Shown here: positions 232-55,091 of the stretch, piece by piece
How the letters are laid out: every line of letters begins with the position of its first letter
Position numbering within the stretch: the first letter of the stretch is position 1
Assembly: GCA_947589435.1 (NCBI GenBank)
Contig: CANQBI010000004.1
Coordinates: 1-55,091 of the forward strand
Origin: an uncultured Bacilli bacterium
GTDB lineage: Bacteria > Bacillota_I > Bacilli_A > RF39 > UBA660
Length of the DNA: 55,091 nt
Reading direction: 5' to 3'
Notes under the pieces: model-generated
Database searches by the model: none
Told to the model about the DNA's origin: nothing
What the model saw: the letters and a program-made list of their open reading frames with translations, nothing else
Position numbers and translations under genes: made by a program

Positions 232-1057
232 ATGAAGAAAGAGAATAAAAATTTAGTACTATATGTAGGATTAACTATATTAGTAGTTCTAATAAGTAGC
301 ATCGGGGGGGGGTTATTGTAACACCCTAATATCTTTAGTATTCATACCATTTAATAACTTAAAAGATAAACTTTATAATATAAAAGAAAAATATAAAAAT
401 TTAAAATATAAACGAGAAATAACCTATATCATTCTCGGTCTTTTTGTTATGACTTTATTTAGAGTAATAAGTTCTACTCATGCTTACTATAATTATGAAA
501 TGGCTCCAGTCCCTATATTTACATCCAAAGTAGGAAACTTTGCTGGAGAAGGGGAAAGTGTTAAAACAGGACCACTTACTGATAAAAACACAGATATAAA
601 TGTTATATTCTATATGCAACTGCCTGATAATGCTGACAAATATAAGGAAAGTAAATATGTACCAGCAAGTGGATATAAAATAAATGTAGATAAATCTAAT
701 TGTTATCCTGCAGCCGGAGGAGATGCAACTTATAATAACTACACAATCAAAGAAGATGGCACAGTCCATATTGAATATACTGAGACAAAACCAACCCAAG
801 TAACTTGTAGATTATATTATGATAGAGATAAATTATCTGATGTTATTATATATGCCTATATAGAAGATGAAAATGGAGATAGAAAATATAATGACAAAAC
901 TTATAAATTAAACAATTCAGTACCAAGTGGATATAATATGACAGCCCATGAATGTAAAAGTAAAACAGCTGAAACTACATTTACATATGATACCAATGGC
1001 TTTCATATAGATACTGCCGGACCAGATACATGTTATGCATACTTTAGTAAAAGTTAG
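232..1057 (+). CDS. Cassette 1 gene A: secreted/membrane-anchored Cys-containing protein, frameshifted at a G9 tract (phase-variable or pseudogene)
   Basis: ATG 232 after GAGGT gives MKKENKNLVLYVGLTILVVLISSIGGGLL* (stop 319-321). Removing one G from G9 (304-312) reads open into ORF 449-1057. Shares THAYY..PIFT.KVGNF and C-terminal C.AYF with 13506-14207 and 28338-29039. Confidence 0.8.
304..312 (+). repeat. G9 homopolymer, candidate slipped-strand phase-variation tract
   Basis: ATC-GGGGGGGGG-TTATTG inside the 5' coding region in a very AT-rich context. Confidence 0.8.
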
Positions 1058-1068
1058 GAGTGGAAATA

Positions 1069-2238
1069 ATGAAAAAGAAAATAATATTAAAATTAATAGT
1101 GGTATTAGTAACAATAGGAATAATATATGAAGGTTATGGAATGATAAAAGAATTTACTGTATCAAGTAGAAATTTAGAAGAAATAAATACTAAAGACTTA
1201 TCAAGCAATGATAAATCAATAGCTATAGTTTTACAAAATGAAGATGATAGTTGGGAAGAAGCAACTGATAGAAGCAAATGGCCGAGTAAAGAAGATTATG
1301 GCTATATGGGAGCAGAATGTACTGACAGTGATGGAGCAAAGATAGATGTATCCACTATTTTAAAATTTGATTTAATGACCTATCATGCCACAATAGATAC
1401 TAAAAATAGTATTTATTGTACATTATATTTTGCAAAAGGAGAACCAGCGTTACAAAAATTACAAGAAACAGGAGGAGAAGTATTTGCTGGAGGTGGAGAC
1501 CACACAACAGCAGTAGATGGGATGTATAGATATAAAGGGACAACAACAGCCGTAAATAATAATTATATATGCTTTGGAACAAGTAATAAAGATGAATGTC
1601 TTGCAAATCCAGATACCTATATGTTTAGAATAATAGGAATAACAAGTGCAGATGATAATACAGTAGGATTAAAAAAAGGTCAATTAAAGATAATCAAAGC
1701 TACCCCATCAAATACAAGTCAAAAATGGGGAAATAGAGAAGATGATAGTTCACCATGGGACTCATCACAAGCAAAAAACCACGTAACATCATGGTATAAT
1801 ACAAACATCAGTGGCAAACAACCAAACGGAACATATTGGGATAGTATAGTAACAAGTCAAAAATGGTATAATGCAGACCAAACAAGTACACCAGGAACAG
1901 TAGAACCAAAAACAAGTCAAAGTGCAGCAAGTAAAGTTGCTTTAATGTATGGAACAGACTTTACAAATGCTAGTACTGGAACAAGTAGTTGGTTGTTTAT
2001 AAAAAACGGAATGACCGGTAGTCCTAGTTCAAATGAATGGACCATGACTAGGTATGGCCTCAACGACAGACGTTATTGGGCGTGGTATGTGCTTACAGAC
2101 GGCCGCTTGACCTACTGGTATGTGGACGGTACGTATGCGGTTCGCCCAGTCTTGTATCTTCAATCTGCAATAAATTTAACAGGTACAGGAAAATCAGATG
2201 ACCCATTTAGAATAAGAAGTATGAATAATGTCCAATAA
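1069..2238 (+). CDS. Cassette 1 gene B: N-terminally anchored surface protein with C-terminal DGR-target-like (C-type-lectin-like) domain
   Basis: N-terminal Lys-rich plus hydrophobic helix; motifs YRYKG..NNYICFG, FRIIG, EWTMTR..AWYV..G.L..YAVRPVLYL; paralogous to 14218-15468 and 29052-30200. Confidence 0.8.
   Translation: MKKKIILKLIVVLVTIGIIYEGYGMIKEFTVSSRNLEEINTKDLSSNDKSIAIVLQNEDDSWEEATDRSKWPSKEDYGYMGAECTDSDGAKIDVSTILKFDLMTYHATIDTKNSIYCTLYFAKGEPALQKLQETGGEVFAGGGDHTTAVDGMYRYKGTTTAVNNNYICFGTSNKDECLANPDTYMFRIIGITSADDNTVGLKKGQLKIIKATPSNTSQKWGNREDDSSPWDSSQAKNHVTSWYNTNISGKQPNGTYWDSIVTSQKWYNADQTSTPGTVEPKTSQSAASKVALMYGTDFTNASTGTSSWLFIKNGMTGSPSSNEWTMTRYGLNDRRYWAWYVLTDGRLTYWYVDGTYAVRPVLYLQSAINLTGTGKSDDPFRIRSMNNVQ
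2050..2145 (+). repeat. Variable repeat (VR1) matching template-like sequence 53216-53311
   Basis: 69/96 nt identical without gaps by manual alignment; GC-rich with only 2 of 32 third codon positions A, unlike the A-ending codons upstream. Confidence 0.8.
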
Positions 2239-2258
2239 AAAAGACTATTGCTAGTCTT
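2237..2258. terminator. Small hairpin between convergent genes
   Basis: AAAAAGACTA-TTGC-TAGTCTT. Confidence 0.5.
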
Positions 2259-2748
2259 AAGAATTAAATTTAACAGTTATATATTTTTCATCGTTATATA
2301 ACTCTTGAACACTTCTGATAATATCATTAGCTTTCTTATTATCGTGTTCTTTAGAAGATACTACAATACTTATTGAAGTATCTTTTATTTTGACAAAAGA
2401 ATTTAAATTAAATTTCTCTTTGATTAAGTTTTTAATTTTTTCTTCTTCACCTTTAGAATTGTTTAATTTTTGCATATTTTCATAAGCGACATTCTTTTCT
2501 TCAATTGTGGAATCACTATCAAGTAAAATGTCTTGGTATTCTTCCATTAAGGCTTGTTTTTCTTCATCATTTTCGACTTCTAAAGCCACTAAAACATCAG
2601 ATTCCGTTATTTCTAAAGTAGTGTTTTGATTATCATTTTCACTTTTTAAAACACTAGCTACTTCATCATCAATGGAAACATAATAAATACCTAAAATTAA
2701 AATTAAAGAAAATAGGGTAATGAACCATAAATTTTGTTTATTAATCAT
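2257..2748 (-). CDS. spoIIIAH: SpoIIIAH-like family sporulation protein
   Basis: KQNLWFITLFSLILILGIYY N-terminal anchor, acidic coiled region, E..I.NLIK...FV.I C-terminal domain; AGGAGG RBS. Confidence 0.75.
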   Translation of the reverse strand: MINKQNLWFITLFSLILILGIYYVSIDDEVASVLKSENDNQNTTLEITESDVLVALEVENDEEKQALMEEYQDILLDSDSTIEEKNVAYENMQKLNNSKGEEEKIKNLIKEKFNLNSFVKIKDTSISIVVSSKEHDNKKANDIIRSVQELYNDEKYITVKFNS

Positions 2749-2851
2749 ATTGCCTCCTTAAATTTATCACTAAATTTTATGTTGTAGATAAAAATAAATG
2801 ACAAATAATTTAATTTTTTTAAATAAGAATAATTGTTTGAAAAAATGAGAA

Positions 2852-2940
2852 TTTTACAACAAATATGTTCATTTTTTAAAGAAATTTCGCGAAAAAAAAG
2901 GAAATCCGAGATTTTTTTACAATAATATAAGTGAAGGGAG
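2852..2940 (+). promoter_or_regulatory. 89-bp upstream element, copy 1 (copy 2 at 52327-52415)
   Basis: 85/89 identity by manual comparison; ends at the RBS of the ABC transporter. Confidence 0.8.
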
Positions 2941-14217: not shown

Positions 14218-15468
14218 ATGAAAAAGAGAGTATTAAATATAATAGTGGTTATAATAACAATTGGAATAATATATGAAGCATACAGCTATTTTAATATGAA
14301 ACCAAATAATAAAGTTTTAGAGAATATTAAGATAGTAGATAAATTTGATAAAAACGATAAATCACTATCTATAATGATTCAAAATGATGGAATATCAGAT
14401 GGCGAAACGGAATATGGCTGGCATGAAGCAGAAGATAAAAGTAAATGGCCAGATTTAACAAAATACAGTTATGCAGGGACAGAATGTACAGATGCTAGTG
14501 GAGCAAAGGTTGATAATCCAAGACAATATTTACAATTTGATGAAGTAAACAAAGAAGCTACAATTACAACAAAGAAAACCATATATTGTACATTATACTT
14601 TGGAAAAGGAAGACCAGCATTAGAAACATTAGATGCTCAAGGAGGAGCATATTATGCTGGAGGTCAAACAGGAGATTCAAAAGTAGCAGTAGAAGGATTA
14701 TATAGATTTAAAGGAACATATGAAGAAGTAACAAACAACTTTATATGTATAGGAGGCCCAAAAAATCCTGAAACTTGTGGAAGTGCCGAAAACAATAAAT
14801 ACTTGTATCGCATAATAGGAGTAACAGATGGAACAGAATCAGATGAAAGTAATTCCTTAGGATTAGATAAAGGAATGCTAAAAGTAATCAAAGTAATACC
14901 ATCAAGCACAAGCCAAGCATGGGCGAGTTATGACATTATTAGTTACTTTACATGGGATTATAAGGATAGTACAGAAAGTTTAGGAGCAGTAGCGAGATGG
15001 ACATTGAATAACACATTCTATAATGGATTAGGAGGAGTAAAAGGCTTAATAAAAGATGTATATTGGTGGAAAGGTGATAATACCAGTGAAACTTATGCAT
15101 CTGAATCAAAAACAAGAACAAGCGAAAAATACCCAGTAGGTTTAATGTACAAAAGTGATTATTATAATTCATGGACATATAAAGGTTATCCTAGTTATAC
15201 AAATAGTTGGTTACATATAATTTACACAATGAGCGGAAAAACAGGAACATATGGAAGTACATATGAATGGACCATGACTAGGGGTTCTGCCAACAACACT
15301 GGCGCTTACGAGGCGTGGTATTTGGATTACCGTGGAGATTTGGCCCGTCGTAGTGTAGAGATGAAATATGCAATCCGGCCGGTTTTCTATCTAAAACCCG
15401 ATGTAAGTATAATAGGGACAGGAACTGAATCGAGTCCATATATAATAACGACATTAACTGATAATTAA
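14218..15468 (+). CDS. Cassette 2 gene B, surface protein with DGR-target-like C-terminus
   Basis: EWTMTR..AWY....G.L....V...YAIRPVFYL; segment 15280-15390 is GC-rich. Confidence 0.85.
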   Translation: MKKRVLNIIVVIITIGIIYEAYSYFNMKPNNKVLENIKIVDKFDKNDKSLSIMIQNDGISDGETEYGWHEAEDKSKWPDLTKYSYAGTECTDASGAKVDNPRQYLQFDEVNKEATITTKKTIYCTLYFGKGRPALETLDAQGGAYYAGGQTGDSKVAVEGLYRFKGTYEEVTNNFICIGGPKNPETCGSAENNKYLYRIIGVTDGTESDESNSLGLDKGMLKVIKVIPSSTSQAWASYDIISYFTWDYKDSTESLGAVARWTLNNTFYNGLGGVKGLIKDVYWWKGDNTSETYASESKTRTSEKYPVGLMYKSDYYNSWTYKGYPSYTNSWLHIIYTMSGKTGTYGSTYEWTMTRGSANNTGAYEAWYLDYRGDLARRSVEMKYAIRPVFYLKPDVSIIGTGTESSPYIITTLTDN

Positions 15469-22829: not shown

Positions 22830-24908
22830 ATGGAATATTTAGACAGTTTAAATAAAGAACAAAAAGAAGCAGTTATGCATATTGATGGCCCATGTCTAGT
22901 AGTAGCGGGGGCTGGTTCAGGTAAGACTAAAGTTCTTACAACTAGAATTGCTTATCTTATTGATAAAGGTATTTATAGTAGTCATATTTTAGCGATTACT
23001 TTTACAAATAAAGCTGCGAAGGAAATGAAAGAAAGAGTTGGAAGGCTTACTTCAAATAGTTATGCTTTTGTAGGAACCTTCCATTCTTTTGGGTTAAGAA
23101 TAATTAAAGAAAATTATGAAGTAATGGGCTTAAAGAAAAATTTTACTATCATCGATTCGGATGATGTTTTAACCATTATTAAAAAAGTTATGAAAGAAAA
23201 AGGGATGGATGTAAGGGAAATATCGCCATCTTATGTAAGAAATAGAATTAGCTTTATTAAAAATGAAATGTTAAGTGTAAGTGATATTGCTAAATATTTT
23301 TTAAGTGATATTGAAAAGAAGGCTGCCGAAGTTTATTTTGAATATGAAAAAACTTTAAGAAAAAATAATGTTATTGATTTTGATGATTTATTAAAATTAC
23401 CGGTAGAATTATTTGAAAGTCACGAAGATATTTTAGATTTATATCAAGAAAAATATCAATATATTTTGGTAGATGAATATCAAGATACCAATGAAGTGCA
23501 ATATAAAATGATTAAACTTTTAGCCAGTAAATATCGGAATATCTTTGTTGTTGGAGATCAAAATCAAGCTATTTATGGTTTTAGACAAGCGAATTATAAA
23601 AATATTTTAAATTTTGAAAAAGATTATCCGGATGCGGAAGTTTATGTTTTAAATCAAAATTATCGGAGTACAACCACCATTTTAAATGCGGCCAATTCGG
23701 TTATTAAAAATAATGTGGAAAGAAAAGAAGTTAATTTATTTAGTGAACTAGGGGAAGGTGTCAAGGTTAAATATTTAAAATGCAAAACAGGTTTAGATGA
23801 AGCAAATTTAATTATTAAAGAAATTGAAAATTTACTTTCTATAGGTTATCAAAAGAAAGATATTGCGATTTTTTATAGAACTAATGCCCAATCCCGGATT
23901 TATGAAGAAGCCTTAATTAAGAATGGTTTACCTTATAAAGTAGTAGGTAGTTTTTACTTCTATAAAAGAAAAGAAATTAAAGATTTAATATGTTATTTAA
24001 AATTAATTGCGAATACCGATGACGATGTTTCTCTTTTAAGAGTTATTAATGAACCAAAAAGAGGCATTGGGGCTAAATCAATTGAAGGTTTAACAGGAAA
24101 AGCGAGAAGAGAAGGCACTTCTATTTTTGAGACCATTGATGGTGGTAAAGAACAAGATTTTAAAAATATGATTTTAGATATCCAAAAGGAAAGTGAGAAT
24201 TTATCTTTAACGGAATTAATTGATTTAGTGTTAGAAAAAAGTAAAATGAAAGAAGAGTTAGAGAAAGTTCATACTTTAGAAGCTGACATTAGACTGGAAA
24301 ACTTAATGGAATTTAGAAGTATAACGGAAAATTATCAAAATGTTACTGGTAGTGTTAATTTACAAGACTTTTTAGAGGAAGTAAGTTTAATTGCGGACAT
24401 TACCGAACATAAAGAAGAAAATGATGAAATAACTTTAATGACTTTTCATTCCGCTAAAGGGTTAGAGTTTAAAGTGGTCTTTATGGTAGGCATGGAAGAT
24501 GGTCTTATGCCTCATATGAATGCTTTTGATGAAAAAAATGGCATTGAAGAAGAAAGAAGACTTTGCTATGTGGGGATAACGAGAGCCAAAGAAAGATTAT
24601 ATTTAACTAATGCGAAGATGAGAATGCTTTATGGTAAAGAAATGTTTAATGTTCCATCACGCTTTATTGCGGAAATTGATCCTAAATATTTAGAAGTAAG
24701 TGGTGAAGAAGAAAAAATAAATAAAGAAAGTTATTATACCGAAAATAGTGAAGAATGTGATTATAAAAGTGGAGATGTTGTTACGCATTTAACCTATGGC
24801 AGAGGGGTTGTTATATCCGTTGATGACCGGTTTGTCAGTGTGGCCTTTAGTAAACAATACGGTATTAGAAAATTCTTAAAAAACTATAAAGGACTAAAGA
24901 AAGGATAA
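22830..24908 (+). CDS. pcrA: ATP-dependent DNA helicase PcrA/UvrD
   Basis: AGAGSGKT, TFTNKAA, VDEYQDTN, NYRST, EEERRL.YVGITRA; near ligA. Confidence 0.96.
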   Translation: MEYLDSLNKEQKEAVMHIDGPCLVVAGAGSGKTKVLTTRIAYLIDKGIYSSHILAITFTNKAAKEMKERVGRLTSNSYAFVGTFHSFGLRIIKENYEVMGLKKNFTIIDSDDVLTIIKKVMKEKGMDVREISPSYVRNRISFIKNEMLSVSDIAKYFLSDIEKKAAEVYFEYEKTLRKNNVIDFDDLLKLPVELFESHEDILDLYQEKYQYILVDEYQDTNEVQYKMIKLLASKYRNIFVVGDQNQAIYGFRQANYKNILNFEKDYPDAEVYVLNQNYRSTTTILNAANSVIKNNVERKEVNLFSELGEGVKVKYLKCKTGLDEANLIIKEIENLLSIGYQKKDIAIFYRTNAQSRIYEEALIKNGLPYKVVGSFYFYKRKEIKDLICYLKLIANTDDDVSLLRVINEPKRGIGAKSIEGLTGKARREGTSIFETIDGGKEQDFKNMILDIQKESENLSLTELIDLVLEKSKMKEELEKVHTLEADIRLENLMEFRSITENYQNVTGSVNLQDFLEEVSLIADITEHKEENDEITLMTFHSAKGLEFKVVFMVGMEDGLMPHMNAFDEKNGIEEERRLCYVGITRAKERLYLTNAKMRMLYGKEMFNVPSRFIAEIDPKYLEVSGEEEKINKESYYTENSEECDYKSGDVVTHLTYGRGVVISVDDRFVSVAFSKQYGIRKFLKNYKGLKKG

Positions 24909-29051: not shown

Positions 29052-30200
29052 ATGAAAAAGAAAATAATGTTAAAAGGTATTGTTATAATATTAATAGTGG
29101 TAGAAGTTATATCATTATACTTATTGTATAACACAGGCAATAAAAATGTATTAGATGAGGTGGTAGCAACATCATTAAAAAATAAGAAACAATCCATAGC
29201 GATAATGGTCCAACAGGATGATAACACATGGAGGGCTGCTGAAAATAGAAATGCTTGGCCAAGTTCGGCAACTCATGGTTTTGTTGGTTCTAAATGTTAT
29301 GATGGAAATGGAGCATTAGTAGAAAGTTTGGATGTACTTAAATTTGATTTAAATACATATACAGCCATAATAAACACAACAAACAGTGTTTATTGTACAT
29401 TATACTTCGCTAAAGGAAAAAATGCTTTAGAACTATTGCAAGAAAAAGGTAAAACAACTTTTGCTAGTGGAAACTTAATCGCAGTAGATGGACTATACCG
29501 TTTTAAAGGAACATATAGTCAAGTATTAAATAATTACATATGTTTTGGAACAACAGTAGAAAGTACATGTACAGGTACTCCAGCAACATATATGTATAGA
29601 ATAATAGGAATATCAAGTGAAGCAGATAATACAATAGGATTATATTCAAGTCAATTAAAAATAATAAAAGCGGTACCATCACTAACAAACCAAGAGTGGG
29701 GTGGCTTCATGTATAACTATCCTGTATGGGAAGAATCGAAATTAAAAGAATATTTAAACACAACATTTCTAAATACGATAAAAAATGGAACTGATGGAAC
29801 ATACTGGAATGGCATAATAAGTCAACATGGATGGTATGTAACAGTTCAAGAAAGTCTGCCAGGAACAGTAGAACCAAAAGATACAACACTTGCAGGAGAC
29901 TCAAATAATATAATAGGGTTAATGTATGCAACAGATTTTAATAATGCTGGAAATTGGTTATTATTAAGTAATGGTTGGACAAATAATTCTCCAGATGGAG
30001 AGTGGACCATGAGTAAATTCGATGATGATGTGGGTTCTGGTGCTTGGTACATTGATCAAAGTGGTTATGTGACGAACGCATATATTGAACGTGAATTATC
30101 AGTTCGGCCTGTCTTCTATCTTAATACAGGAACTAATTTAACAGGAGAAGGAACCAAAGACCATCCATTTATAATATCAGGGGTAATGCCTCAAGATTAA
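29052..30200 (+). CDS. Cassette 3 gene B, surface protein with DGR-target-like C-terminus
   Basis: EWTMSK..AWYI...G.V.....LSVRPVFYL; paralog of the other two B genes. Confidence 0.85.
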   Translation: MKKKIMLKGIVIILIVVEVISLYLLYNTGNKNVLDEVVATSLKNKKQSIAIMVQQDDNTWRAAENRNAWPSSATHGFVGSKCYDGNGALVESLDVLKFDLNTYTAIINTTNSVYCTLYFAKGKNALELLQEKGKTTFASGNLIAVDGLYRFKGTYSQVLNNYICFGTTVESTCTGTPATYMYRIIGISSEADNTIGLYSSQLKIIKAVPSLTNQEWGGFMYNYPVWEESKLKEYLNTTFLNTIKNGTDGTYWNGIISQHGWYVTVQESLPGTVEPKDTTLAGDSNNIIGLMYATDFNNAGNWLLLSNGWTNNSPDGEWTMSKFDDDVGSGAWYIDQSGYVTNAYIERELSVRPVFYLNTGTNLTGEGTKDHPFIISGVMPQD

Positions 30201-52102: not shown

Positions 52103-52285
52103 TTGAAAAATGATAAGAAAAAAATTACTAAATTTCCTAAAGGATTTTTTACTAGTATCAAGCCTTGTAGAATCAATCATAGTAAAAACTCTGAAGAAGA
52201 CTTACCATTTGAATGGAGTGAAAATGTTTTAAATGGAAAAAGTAAAGTAAAATTAGTATCGGCAAAAAGAAAAACTAATAAGTAA
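52103..52285 (+). CDS. Small basic protein, paralog of 52955-53128 (candidate antitoxin)
   Basis: KFPKGFF...PFEWSE..LNGKSKVK.VSAKRKTNK; own TGTATAAT and RBS. Confidence 0.7.
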   Translation: MKNDKKKITKFPKGFFTSIKPCRINHSKNSEEDLPFEWSENVLNGKSKVKLVSAKRKTNK

Positions 52286-52326: not shown

Positions 52327-52415
52327 TTTTACAACAAATGTGTTCTTTTTTTTAAGAAATTTCGCGAAAAAAAAGGAAATCAGAGATTTTTTTACAATAA
52401 TATAAGTGAAGGGAG
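52327..52415 (+). promoter_or_regulatory. 89-bp upstream element, copy 2
   Basis: 85/89 identical to 2852-2940. Confidence 0.8.
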
Positions 52416-52471: not shown

Positions 52472-52888
52472 ATGTGTAAACTTGGAGATATAATAGTTAT
52501 AGATAAGTTTAAAAATGAAGATGGAGAAATCATTTCTAAACATTCCTTTGTTGTTGTTTCTGATAGCAAAGGATGTATTAGTGGAATTAAATATGATTTT
52601 GTAGCAAGCATACTTTGTAGTTTTCATAACAAAGAACATTTGAATAAAAAGTTAAGATATAAAGAAAACTTCTTAATTAAAGAAGATTTAATATCTGGAA
52701 AAAATTTAAACAATAAATCTGGTTATATTAAAGCAGATCAATTATATTATTTTGATAAAAAACAAATAAATTATAAAGTTATTGCCCATATGGAAGATGA
52801 ACTATTTGATGAATTAATACAATTAATAATAGATTTAAGTAAAAAAGACAAATTGAAAAATATTGAAACAAATTTAGAAAAAGCCTAA
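52472..52888 (+). CDS. Divergent PemK/MazF-like protein
   Basis: GDII.I....G....H.FVVVS and GYIKADQLY.F resemble the MazF pattern; AAGGAGG RBS. Confidence 0.6.
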   Translation: MCKLGDIIVIDKFKNEDGEIISKHSFVVVSDSKGCISGIKYDFVASILCSFHNKEHLNKKLRYKENFLIKEDLISGKNLNNKSGYIKADQLYYFDKKQINYKVIAHMEDELFDELIQLIIDLSKKDKLKNIETNLEKA

Positions 52889-52954: not shown

Positions 52955-53128
52955 ATGGTCAAAAAAAATCGTCCTAAATTTCCTAAAGGCTTTTTTTCTC
53001 AACCAAGACCCACTATTAGTTTAAAAGAAGCTTTAAAAGATGTTACTCCCTTCGAATGGAGTGAGGATGCTTTAAATGGAAAAAGTAAAGTTAAAATAGT
53101 ATCGGCAAAAAGAAAGACTAATAAATAA
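52955..53128 (+). CDS. Small basic protein, paralog of 52103-52285 (candidate antitoxin)
   Basis: KFPKGFF..PFEWSEDALNGKSKVKIVSAKRKTNK; GAGGTGG RBS; own TGTATAAT. Confidence 0.72.
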   Translation: MVKKNRPKFPKGFFSQPRPTISLKEALKDVTPFEWSEDALNGKSKVKIVSAKRKTNK

Positions 53129-53192
53129 CAAGAAGATAGTTATATTTAAATAATTATCTTTTTTAAATCAGTAGTTTTACGATATAATATAA

Positions 53193-53455
53193 ATAGGTAA
53201 TCTTGATATAGAGTTAGGTATGGCCGAGATGGCAGCAATTACAATGCGTGGGTTGTGACTACGGACGGCAACTTGAACAACCCGAATGTGAACAATACGT
53301 ATGCGGTTCGCCAGACTTCTATAACTTGAATGATTATATGATTAAGGTTATATACTAGGGAAGATAGAAGACAAAGATTATCTAGGACTTTATCCAAAAC
53401 AAAAACGAAGATGGTTTATTTTACGAAATAACCTGTATACTTCGTTATTTTTTTG
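53193..53455 (+). ncRNA. Stand-alone DGR template-repeat-like RNA (TR core 53216-53311)
   Basis: Eight AAY triplets in the VR1 frame; no start or RBS; TATAAT 53183-53188; flanks TAGGTAATCTT (53194-53204) and AAGATTATCTA (53374-53384) can pair; terminal stem AACGAAG/CTTCGTT plus T-run. Confidence 0.78.
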
Positions 53456-53563: not shown

Positions 53564-53594
53564 TTGACAAATAGAATACGGGGGGGGGTATAAT
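53564..53594 (+). promoter_or_regulatory. Promoter with G9 tract in the -35/-10 spacer (phase-variable)
   Basis: TTGACA-AATAGAATAC-GGGGGGGGG-TATAAT, 19-bp spacer. Confidence 0.85.
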
Positions 53595-53622: not shown

Positions 53623-55091
53623 ATGAAAAATTTAAAAATGTTTGCAATTGCTGTTATGGCATTCGCTGTAATGGCTACTGGTGTTCGTGCTGCTGTTACA
53701 TGTACAAATGCAAGTTATTCGAACACAGTTGATGGTGAGCTTAAGTGTTATACTAGTTTTTCTACAGCTTTAACTGAAGCGAAAATTGGTGACACAATAA
53801 AACTAGAAGGTGATTCTGAAGGTGTTGTTACAGAAACTACAGCCATAGTAATCAATAAAAATGTTAATATTGATTTAAATGGTAAAACTCTTAAATTAGA
53901 TGGTGCTATTGGAATTACAGTAAATTCTGGTTATAAGCTTACTTTAAAAGGAACAGGAAAAGTTGAAAATACAACTTCTGCTAATACATCTTTAATTACT
54001 GTTCAAGCTGGAGCTACATTAAAAGTAGATGATTCAGTTAATCTAGTTAATAATGAGGATAATGCAGGAAATACTGCTATTGATGCTTCTGCTGTAAGAG
54101 TTGAAAGTAATAATACAGCTAATAAAACTACTGTAGTATTTGGAAAGGACGTTGTTGTTACTTCAAAATTACATGGTTTAGTTGTTGGTGGCGGAAGTAC
54201 TCTAGCAACTGCTAAAAATATTGACATCACTATGAGAGGTACTTGGACTGCAGATGTTTATGTAGTAAAAGTTAATGGATATATTACATATCAAAGTAGT
54301 AATCCTGTAAAAATTGCTATACCTGAAGGTACTTATACTTCAAATGGAGCAAGCGCATTATATGCGTCAGGATATGCTGAATGGGATATCGATAATCCTA
54401 CTGTAAAGGGTTCTCAAGCAGTTACAGTTAGAAGTGGTAAAGTAGATATTAGTGGTGGTACTTTTGAAGCTACTACTTCAACAAATGGTGCTGGTACTCA
54501 TGATGGTTCATCAAATCATGCTATTGCTATCTTAGGAAACGAAGCTGTTGCTGGAAATAGTTCTTATAATGATCCAAAATATATTGATGTAAAAATTTCA
54601 GGAGGTGCATTCACTGCTAAAACTGATGATTCATATGCAATATATATTGGAGAAATAAATGATGATACTAAATTAGCTATTAGTAATGGTACATTTACAA
54701 GTGGTAAGGATTCTGTTGAAGAAACACAATTACCTGCTATGTTTATCAATACAAATAGTCTTCAAACAATGCTTGAAAAACATGATGATATAATTACTGG
54801 CGGAACATTTACTGGTGGTTTAGTTGATGAAATTGAATATGATGGTAAAAAATATGAACCTGCTGATGTTCAAGCTAAATTAGTTAAAGGTGAAGTTAAT
54901 ACTGAAGGTGGAAATACTACAGTTGGAACTCCTTCTGATGAAGGACAACAACCAGGAAGTACAGAACCAGGAACAACTGGTGATGGAAATCAAGGCTCTA
55001 CAGAAAACGTTAAAAACCCAGAAACTAATGATAATATCTTAGTATATGCTGGTCTAGGACTAGTAAGTCTTGCCTCTGTTGCTTTTACAGC
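53623..55091 (+). CDS. Cell-surface protein with signal peptide and sortase-type anchor; runs off the window (not in ORF track)
   Basis: MKNLKMFAIAVMAFAVMATGVRA signal; I.GGTF repeats; same-frame C-terminal KNPETNDNILVYAGLGLVSLASVAFT. Confidence 0.88.
   Translation, partial: MKNLKMFAIAVMAFAVMATGVRAAVTCTNASYSNTVDGELKCYTSFSTALTEAKIGDTIKLEGDSEGVVTETTAIVINKNVNIDLNGKTLKLDGAIGITVNSGYKLTLKGTGKVENTTSANTSLITVQAGATLKVDDSVNLVNNEDNAGNTAIDASAVRVESNNTANKTTVVFGKDVVVTSKLHGLVVGGGSTLATAKNIDITMRGTWTADVYVVKVNGYITYQSSNPVKIAIPEGTYTSNGASALYASGYAEWDIDNPTVKGSQAVTVRSGKVDISGGTFEATTSTNGAGTHDGSSNHAIAILGNEAVAGNSSYNDPKYIDVKISGGAFTAKTDDSYAIYIGEINDDTKLAISNGTFTSGKDSVEETQLPAMFINTNSLQTMLEKHDDIITGGTFTGGLVDEIEYDGKKYEPADVQAKLVKGEVNTEGGNTTVGTPSDEGQQPGSTEPGTTGDGNQGSTENVKNPETNDNILVYAGLGLVSLASVAFT

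Follow-up and report, generated by a model that had tools for sequence, protein, structure and literature searches.

A free-standing template RNA gene of a diversity-generating retroelement, probably one of a dispersed family around a single reverse transcriptase

The 55,091-nt stretch of DNA studied here (contig CANQBI010000004.1 of assembly GCA_947589435.1, positions 1 to 55,091; hereafter the window, to which coordinates without a contig label refer) comes from an uncultured Bacilli bacterium. Near its end, at 53183-53455 on the plus strand, lies a locus that is very probably a complete, free-standing RNA gene of about 260 nt which carries the template of a diversity-generating retroelement (DGR) and would be served in trans by an Avd-like protein and a reverse transcriptase (RT) encoded on another contig, C13. 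The usual description of a DGR comprises one RT, a single invariant template repeat (TR) and one or a few variable repeats (VRs). In contrast, it is highly probable that in this genome one DGR-type RT serves at least 13 dispersed template genes, an unusually large template set. A preliminary description of this DNA had proposed a template-like RNA gene with no neighbouring RT; indeed, no RT gene was found within the 55-kb window, and the RT-distant placement is the respect in which the locus departs from the usual DGR cassette.

The RNA gene and its comparative fold

The elements of the locus, in order of position, are the following.

53183-53188, plus strand: -10 box TATAAT, with a putative promoter function
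53194-53204, plus strand: 5' leader, 5' strand of the closing helix P1, which pairs with 53374-53384
53217-53312, plus strand: TR of 96 nt, GGTATGGC...GCGGTTCGCC, with 26 A and 8 in-frame AAY codons
53313-53315, plus strand: variable linker from the end of the TR to the 3' scaffold, the shortest among 13 copies
53316-53370, plus strand: composite stem-loop right after the TR, P2 enclosing P3 (comparative fold)
53374-53384, plus strand: 3' strand of the closing helix P1, which pairs with 53194-53204
53385-53403, plus strand: short hairpin P4 (GGA...ATCC), then an A-rich single strand (AAAACAAA) (comparative fold)
53404-53455, plus strand: long terminal stem interrupted by interior loops and followed by a U run, terminator-like; helices 7 and 8

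The TR has a G+C content of 52%, against 28% for the window, and can be aligned with the VRs of about 26 target genes. Its translation in the target reading frame is YGRDGSNYNAWVVTTDGNLNNPNVNNTYAVR, and all eight AAY triplets pointed out previously lie in that frame. The similarity from which the preliminary description started, a gapless alignment of 53216-53311 with 2050-2145 (69/96 identical), was reproduced together with its adenine bias: 14 of 27 template adenines differ as compared with 13 of 69 other bases (Fisher p 0.002), and 8 of the 10 mismatches in the 3' half fall at A. A BLAST search of the locus against its own genome gave an E value of 6.8e-10 for C4:2049-2157, far above chance.

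The fold was derived from an alignment of 50 rows from 11 genomes, namely 13 copies of this genome, 6 of a sister genome (G041) and 31 regions of relatives; the latter remained from 36 collected regions after excluding five (L071, L084, L089, L096 and L099) in which the leader and module patterns were not both found. RNAalifold and pair counting yielded 52 pairs in 8 helices, with 98.5% of cells paired versus 44-51% with slid partners, and with compensatory change at 23 pairs versus 3-8 with slid partners and in 0/500 shuffles. The DGR RNA scaffold, consisting of an upstream:downstream duplex, a stem-loop after the TR and further stems, is backed by covariation in these 50 copies.

The complementarity noticed earlier between the flanks 53194-53204 (TAGGTAATCTT) and 53374-53384 (AAGATTATCTA) corresponds to the closing helix P1. 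Its 11 pairs, 10 Watson-Crick and one G-U, are kept in 50/50 copies, with 98.7% of cells paired; an A-U pair is changed to G-U in 10 copies and to G-C in 1. P2 is formed by 53316-53327 with 53361-53370, its pair 165/218 being UA in 37 copies and CG in 13, and encloses P3 (53335-53342 with 53347-53354, tetraloop TAAG), which has 3 compensatory pairs and 100% of cells paired. In P4 (53385-53387 with 53392-53395) compensatory change was seen at 2/4 pairs. The terminator-like end of the preliminary description proved to be a covarying two-part stem (53404-53410/53440-53446 and 53413-53421/53426-53434; compensatory change in 13/15 pairs) followed by the U run. A further helix between TATAGA (53207-53212) and TCTATA (53318-53323) had been suggested to enclose the TR; the two hexamers are complementary, but the comparative fold engages the latter in P2 instead, and the leader stretch containing TATAGA is not conserved across the other genomes.

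The TATAAT reported upstream is present at 53183-53188, and a box of this kind (TATAAT, GATAAT or TAATAT, read by eye) stands at a constant spacing to the leader in 50/50 aligned rows, including 13/13 copies of this genome. In a generic scan for sigma-70 promoters and terminators, the box and the terminal stem both went unlisted; the box was missed because the -35 element is weak. Rfam gave no match to the locus at E values up to 1, and only sub-threshold ALIL matches for three sister loci.

The template family and its reverse transcriptase

The previous suggestion that the locus might be one of a family of templates was borne out by BLAST against its own genome (1.44 Mb, 62 contigs), which gave 13 full-length copies of the 273-nt stretch with 78-88% identity, and about 15 further, shorter matches covering the TR part only. 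Contig C6 carries four copies, and C7 and C13 carry two each; since several copies share a contig, they are true paralogs, not assembly duplicates. Two copies stand beside the RT and 11/13, that at 53183-53455 included, are away from the RT locus; 5/13 TR genes directly follow target-type genes. The 13 copies have in common the TATAAT-like box, the leader AGGTAATCTTGATAT, the TR ends, a nearly invariant 3' part of about 100 nt and, at the end, the U run preceded by a stem whose arms covary. Between GGTATGGC and GCGGTTCGCC the variable core measures 84-108 nt, with differences in codon-sized blocks, and the A content of the TRs ranges from 24 to 34.

Two RVT_1 profile matches were detected in the genome, on C13 and C17, and the search for a DGR-type RT accompanied by an Avd-like gene led to one locus, on C13. 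The C13 RT (C13:36700-37824, minus strand, 374 aa; RVT_1 E 3.6e-18) has as its closest solved relative 8ub7_A ('Reverse transcriptase', 328 aa; E 3.6e-22), which may be bRT of the Bordetella phage, a protein of that same length. The gene order on this strand is two TR copies, a 103-aa open reading frame (ORF), a 128-aa Avd-like ORF and, directly downstream, the RT. The Avd-like ORF matched PF22296 bAvd (E 2.3e-6, 28.5 bits, below the cut-off of 40) and NCBIfam DivGenRetAVD (E 2.2e-8, 34.4 bits, below the cut-off of 80), and had no match among solved structures. The 103-aa ORF (C13:38172-38483; L022:2739-3050, minus strand), flanked by the RT-proximal TR gene on one side and the Avd-like gene on the other, showed no Pfam or NCBIfam match and is a possible further DGR accessory gene. 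The RT on C17 (C17:1370-2341; L021:1261-2232, minus strand) scores as retron St85 family (215.5 bits, cut-off 235), has small ORFs nearby and belongs to a retroelement distinct from the DGR.

Of 24 genomes of the same genus, 12 contained the RNA module, with 1-12 matches per genome of which some are partial, and 13 contained the RT; 11 of the 12 module-holding genomes have a match to the RT, in most cases just one, and the RT is absent from 16/16 examined genomes of other genera. TR genes lie directly upstream of the RT in G001, G004, G008, G014 and G023, and the last three have additional copies on other contigs. The RT of G041 is 97% identical to the C13 RT, and the TRs of that sister genome are themselves module-shuffled.

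A target with adenine-only differences was found in G004, where the ortholog of the C13 RT adjoins such a TR/VR pair. Only one TR gene was detected in this genome; its VR, about 200 nt upstream, has 0 non-A mismatches inside the TR and about 15 at A. Because this adjacent VR differs from the TR only at A, the system appears to be a canonical DGR as far as the data reach. The 11 remote VRs of G004 have 3-13 non-A mismatches.

Target genes, variable repeats and the use of templates

A VR-boundary pattern had 49 matches in the genome, 44 of them in frames longer than 200 aa (mostly about 380-420 aa); the other five, in frames of less than 200 aa and one of them a TR copy, were excluded. The conserved VR core is held by 37/44 of these target-type frames, in 26 with at most one mismatch. 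The frames carry AVRPVFYL 24-30 codons before the stop and end 24-30 codons after the VR, and two double-domain frames bear an extra internal VR site. At the 3' boundary the VRs read GCGGTTCGCC followed by CAGTCTTCTATCT, and the TRs GCGGTTCGCC followed by 0-3 nt and AG(C/A)CTTCTATAACT; this shared G+C-rich boundary with differing downstream flanks would correspond to the initiation of mutagenic homing (IMH / IMH*) feature of DGRs. The TRs are A-rich where the VRs are not. The target whose similarity to the RNA gene was first noticed comprises two features.

1069-2238, plus strand: target-type gene, 389 aa, with an N-terminal hydrophobic helix and ...AVRPV(L/F)YL 30 codons before the stop
2051-2146, plus strand: VR of this gene, belonging to the same DGR system but not the own target of the TR at 53217-53312

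No Pfam family matched the product of this gene; DUF6273 was present in 5/12 paralogs. A search for sequencing runs gave 8 DNA runs from 2 studies and none of RNA. Contigs from four DNA runs compared with window positions 900-2900 were pieces of about 90-700 nt, many of them paralog-derived, from which no A-specific variation was readable; in 4/4 runs they jump from 2058 to 2132-2138, across the VR interior, and the jump may reflect other VR alleles, paralogs or TRs. No orthologous VR pair of this genome and G041 was comparable, because the gene at the position syntenic to the window target is only about 71% identical and the other target genes 75-79%. The window contains two more target-type paralogs, at 14218-15468 and 29052-30200, whose VR-equivalents (G+C 52% and 40%, respectively) have 6 and 10 non-A mismatches in the middle segment and 10 and 12 in the 3' segment; they are apparently not, or no longer, rewritten by the DGR.

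In this genome, the mismatches of VRs to their best TR concentrate at TR adenines. The VR at C44:7936 differs from the TR on C11 at 3 non-A and 18 A positions, and that at C8:9030 from the TR on C45 at 4 non-A and 20 A; the latter two are both of the unusual length of 93 nt and both carry GATTGG codons. The TRs on C11 and C45 lie on contigs other than that of the RT and, in G041, the VR beside the RT locus best fits a TR on another contig (2 non-A, 15 A). Because these off-contig TRs are the ones that best fit the VRs, RT-distant template genes are probably used in trans, on indirect evidence. The proposal that the template acts in trans has therefore gained support for sister copies, not for the 53183-53455 copy itself.

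For the VR at 2051-2146, the TR at 53217-53312 (13 non-A and 14 A mismatches) ranks third, the best single TR being C6:31007 (6 non-A, 16 A). Taken by segment, the 5' 21 nt of this VR fit the TR on C18 (1 non-A, 3 A), its middle 29 nt C6:31007 (0 non-A, 5 A) and its 3' 38 nt C13:40144 (0/25 non-A, 7/13 A, p 1.4e-4), figures that are inflated in so far as choosing the best of 13 TRs per segment itself lowers mismatches. From these comparisons we conclude that the TR at 53217-53312 is not the donor of this VR. The preliminary description had pointed to three codon differences with non-A changes (CCG/TGG, GTT/TAT and ACT/CTT, template versus VR) as a sign of a template family. These are explained by the sister TRs, which carry TGG at the CCG site, and AAT at the GTT site in 13/19 and at the ACT site in 16/19 copies, TAT and CTT in the VR being A-only derivatives of AAT; the family part of that account holds, and the VR is not the own target of this template. 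Single VR segments in this genome reach A-only fits (non-A/A 0/7, 0/5 and 0/5). Several templates may have written the VR at 2051-2146 one after another, or its source may have been a recombinant TR missing from the assembly. Mosaic VRs were rejected as an established reading: the remote VRs of G004, where a single TR gene was detected, have 3-13 non-A mismatches too, and decay of old VRs or unassembled recombinant TRs therefore explain the data equally well.

Comparison with its ortholog in G041 indicates that the 53183-53455 copy is under constraint. Identical positions amount to 133/152 in the 5' flank, 32/34 in the box plus leader, 91/96 in the TR, 108/109 in the 3' part and 170/184 in the 3' flank; the 3' part thus has 1/109 differences against 33/336 in the flanks (p 0.0013). 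The linker after the TR has 3 extra bases in the ortholog, and all helices are intact in the copy studied here. Its best partial link is to the 5' 21 nt of the VR at C8:11517 (2 non-A, 4 A), with which it shares a unique string after GGTATGGC. It also has fixed codons of its own, RDG near the 5' end and GTT, ACT, CCG and TAT where its sisters have AAT or AAC, and would therefore write a distinct residue pattern. Because the scaffold is conserved, the helices are intact and 8 AAY codons are kept, we take the copy to be a functional template gene whose recipient may be unassembled or rarely rewritten, with an even chance that it is in current use.

Several results weigh against the reading of the locus as a DGR template served in trans. 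The fold energy of the single sequence is no better than that of shuffles (z -0.41). In no TR/VR pair of this genome are the mismatches confined to A along the entire repeat; the preliminary description had looked forward to a VR differing from this TR only at A, and the assembly showed none, nor any VR site with 8 or fewer non-A mismatches to it over the full length, while none of 12 VR-type sites examined in G041 fits the ortholog TR (best, 11 non-A). All NCBIfam matches of the C13 RT, in a set that included no DGR-specific RT model, lie far below the cut-offs, and the two profile scores of the putative Avd are below theirs. For a C-type lectin or Ig-like fold of the target, a profile search against PDB sequences gave no match; the AlphaFold target model has a mean pLDDT of 65.8, low C-terminally, and Foldseek gave no match in PDB at E<=0.001. 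Finally, the genome is a 62-contig draft, 93% complete, so that the copy counts and the lack of partners are provisional.

The alternative that survives best is a retired template, that is, a once working TR gene that feeds no VR now and whose AAY codons are being lost. It agrees with the lack of a VR partner in the genome and, for the ortholog, among the examined G041 sites, with 26 A, near the low end of the range over the 13 copies, with GTT, ACT, CCG and TAT where most copies have AAT or AAC, and with the shortest linker after the TR. However, the contrast between scaffold and flanks against the sister species (1/109 vs 33/336), the intact promoter box and helices and the eight AAY codons still in frame are at odds with retirement, and in an assembly 93% complete the partner may be unassembled; we consider it unlikely. 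The RNA could instead belong to another retroelement (for example, as msr/msd of the C17 retron-type RT) or be an unrelated regulatory RNA. A retron-type RT is indeed present in the genome and no Rfam family matches the locus, yet the RNA gene stands directly upstream of the DGR-type RT in the five relatives named above, its variable core shows homology to VRs whose mismatches are A-specific and 0/13 copies are on C17, which leaves this explanation very little room. A decayed fragment of a target-gene paralog resembling a VR by chance, a refutation that the preliminary description had envisaged and to which the in-frame likeness to coding VRs and the five TR genes that follow target-type genes might point, fails almost entirely because the locus comes with a promoter box, a leader, a covarying scaffold and a terminator of its own, repeated in 13 copies and in no target gene; besides, the likeness ends exactly at the TR boundaries, the VRs do not share the A-richness of the TRs, the place upstream in the window where a gene remnant would lie is taken by a 57-aa ORF and a MazF-like gene, and own-genome BLAST found no upstream homology to the target gene body.

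With the locus read as a template gene, the divergence among templates can be considered. In the 19 TRs of the two sister genomes, 33/35 consensus-A columns vary as compared with 17/61 others (p 8e-11), and departures from the consensus amount to 136/657 A cells against 83/1149 other cells. The TR at 53217-53312 differs from the consensus at 10/35 consensus-A and 4/61 other positions, in keeping with the idea, put forward earlier, of a copy partly diversified from a master template. All 9 non-AAT variants of the last AAT codon (TAT, CCT, TTT, CGT, ATT, CTT) retain the third T, as do 6/6 variants of the AAT after GCGTGG; the variants at both codons together are TAT, TTT, CGT, CCT, ATT, CTT and GTT. 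Codons such as CGT and CTT would not be expected in a genome this rich in A+T. The two orthologous TR pairs that are clear differ at 5/96 and 8/102 positions in the TR versus 1/109 and 3/111 in the 3' part; in the C11 pair the TR is also more diverged than the 3' flank (2/179, p 0.005), and for the pair of the window alone the contrast between TR and 3' part did not reach significance (p 0.10). Part of the A-biased pattern could stem from selection on binding-site codons, and the TGG and CCG variants need ordinary substitutions. The pattern fits templates that are occasionally rewritten by adenine-mutagenized cDNA or by VR-to-TR conversion.

We tentatively propose, as a possibility that we hold to be rather doubtful, that a single Avd-RT pair draws on at least 13 portable template RNA genes as its library, and that the chemistry of the retroelement itself rewrites this library. 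The cDNA of any template could then home into any VR, because all TRs and about 26 VRs share the 3' boundary and internal conserved blocks, and partial conversion would give mosaic VRs; the VR at 2051-2146, with its three TRs by segment (1/3, 0/5 and 0/7 non-A/A) against 6 non-A for the best single one, might be such a case. Conversely, new templates may arise by the return of mutagenized cDNA, or of a VR sequence, into a TR gene; such a return would fix useful residues, letting the template set evolve.

Neighbouring elements, related systems and meaning

Two runs of nine G are candidates for phase variation. The first, at 304-312, interrupts the gene 232-1057, the frame from the ATG at 232 stopping at 319-321; by our reading, one G fewer would join this frame to ORF 449-1057, ending GPDTCYAYFSKS. 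This ORF is the partner gene found in front of target-type genes at several loci, and the run may act as a phase-variable switch immediately before the DGR target gene. The second, at 53580-53588, fills the spacer between TTGACA (53564-53569) and TATAAT (53589-53594), with 8 G in the sister genome; this promoter precedes a surface-protein gene (53623-55089+) just downstream of the TR gene, and the run is a candidate for promoter-spacer phase variation.

An intergenic repeat of about 70 nt, ACAACAAATGTGTTC ... TTTCGCGAAAAAAAAGGAAATC ... TTTTTACAATAATAT, occurs at about 2860-2930 and 52330-52400, also after five TR copies (C6:4241, C6:28189, C6:29838, C13:40106 and C7:44813), and upstream of unrelated genes (a C39 peptidase ABC exporter, the MazF-like gene and DUF3800 genes); it looks like a shared promoter or operator. 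At C6:27868-31283 (loci L009 and L005 of this genome, G000) three TRs alternate with two DUF3800 genes (PF12686, 26.8 bits, cut-off 21), and a 229-aa gene with an N-terminus near-identical to the DUF3800 genes follows the TR at C7:44850. Unexplained RNA motifs are known to accompany DUF3800 genes (PMC5737381); none of the Rfam DUF3800 motifs matched at the sister TR loci. Directly upstream of the TR gene lies a trio made up of two paralogous small ORFs, 52103-52285 (60 aa) and 52955-53128 (57 aa), both ending ...FEWSE..LNGKSKVK.VSAKRKTNK, and between them a PemK/MazF-like ORF (52472-52888; E 4.8e-4, below cut-off), possibly a toxin-antitoxin-like module. Scanned with Rfam at gathering scores, the window yielded nothing beyond a tRNA and, at 24522-24619, n00280 (69 bits, gathering score 65.2), an sRNA of Clostridioides difficile lying inside a helicase gene.

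The order of elements in the RNA resembles that of the Bordetella phage BPP-1 DGR RNA. In the accessible part of the cryo-EM report on the ribonucleoprotein (RNP) of that phage (bioRxiv 10.1101/2023.10.23.563531), the TR-upstream segment forms an 11-bp duplex with the spacer ('cPRT Stop'), a short stem-loop and adenosines follow the duplex, a tetraloop stem-loop at the spacer start binds Avd, and a single-stranded 'Thumb Ring' and a long stem with interior loops, which binds the RT, are described; putative equivalents of these elements are given for 207/278 DGRs. As far as that text goes, both systems have an 11-bp upstream:downstream duplex, an RT gene and a gene for Avd or, here, for an Avd-like protein, and the same order of P2/P3 after the TR, P1, P4 with an A run, a single strand and a terminal stem. 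The likeness is one of position and shape, the RNAs having no sequence similarity, and the equivalence of the elements is thus presumptive. BPP-1, in the same portion of the source, has one TR between avd and brt, with the upstream segment within the avd coding region; unlike it, the genes described here have their own promoter box and a non-coding leader, and exist in 13 copies, 11 of them not beside the RT.

By analogy with the phage RNP, the RNA would be made from its own promoter, and P1, joining the leader to the 3' part, would make a closed loop of the TR. Avd and the RT may be bound by the stem-loop that immediately follows the TR and by the long terminal stem, and cDNA could be primed within the 3' part, near the invariant GACAAAG that precedes the P1 strand. 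The TR-proximal stretch similar to the downstream flank of the VR forms the 5' strand of P2, and therefore the priming nucleotide may lie in the GACAAAG between P2 and P1. Synthesis would proceed through the TR with misincorporation opposite A and stop at P1, and the cDNA would replace a VR ending in GCGGTTCGCC + CAGTCTTCTATCT.

Other systems share single traits with this one, within the parts of the respective reports that were accessible. In Trichodesmium erythraeum IMS101 the TR is likewise transcribed from its own promoter, as an RNA of about 265 nt with at least 12 dispersed targets, but there is one TR beside the RT gene (PMC4143802), in contrast to the 13 distinct and mostly RT-distant TR genes found here. 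In Treponema denticola and Thiohalocapsa PB-PSB1 an RT and TR act on remote VRs, and incomplete DGR loci appear to borrow an RT and/or TR from elsewhere (PMC5758913, PMC10907252); those accounts concern remote VRs or several separate, partly broken loci, not paralogous free-standing template genes around one RT. In Stenotrophomonas sp. SKA14 two TRs occur together with six VRs, mostly in DUF1566 proteins (PMC6642488). DGRs with several TRs are recorded in surveys as cassette variants, some of them set aside in a second survey, and the accessible survey text makes no mention of separate structured TR genes, of dispersal or of about 13 TRs. Our literature search found no described family of dispersed free-standing structured template RNA genes around one RT, the supplementary TR-VR tables of PMC8144416, PMC6642488 and PMC11661182, which may bear on the matter, being outside that search. 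What appears to be new is such a paralogous family around one RT; the DGR type itself is known.

In summary, a gut bacterium with a genome of 1.44 Mb holds about 44 target-type frames, about 26 of them with DGR-type VRs, at least 13 template RNA genes and one RT. If all the scattered templates are used, the sequence space of each receptor would be set not by one template but by the choice among templates that differ in both fixed and variable codons, possibly in mosaic. The A-biased divergence of the templates, in turn, questions their assumed invariance. Furthermore, the free-standing RNA gene would represent a compact natural trans-acting DGR RNA, of practical interest for DGR-based mutagenesis tools.

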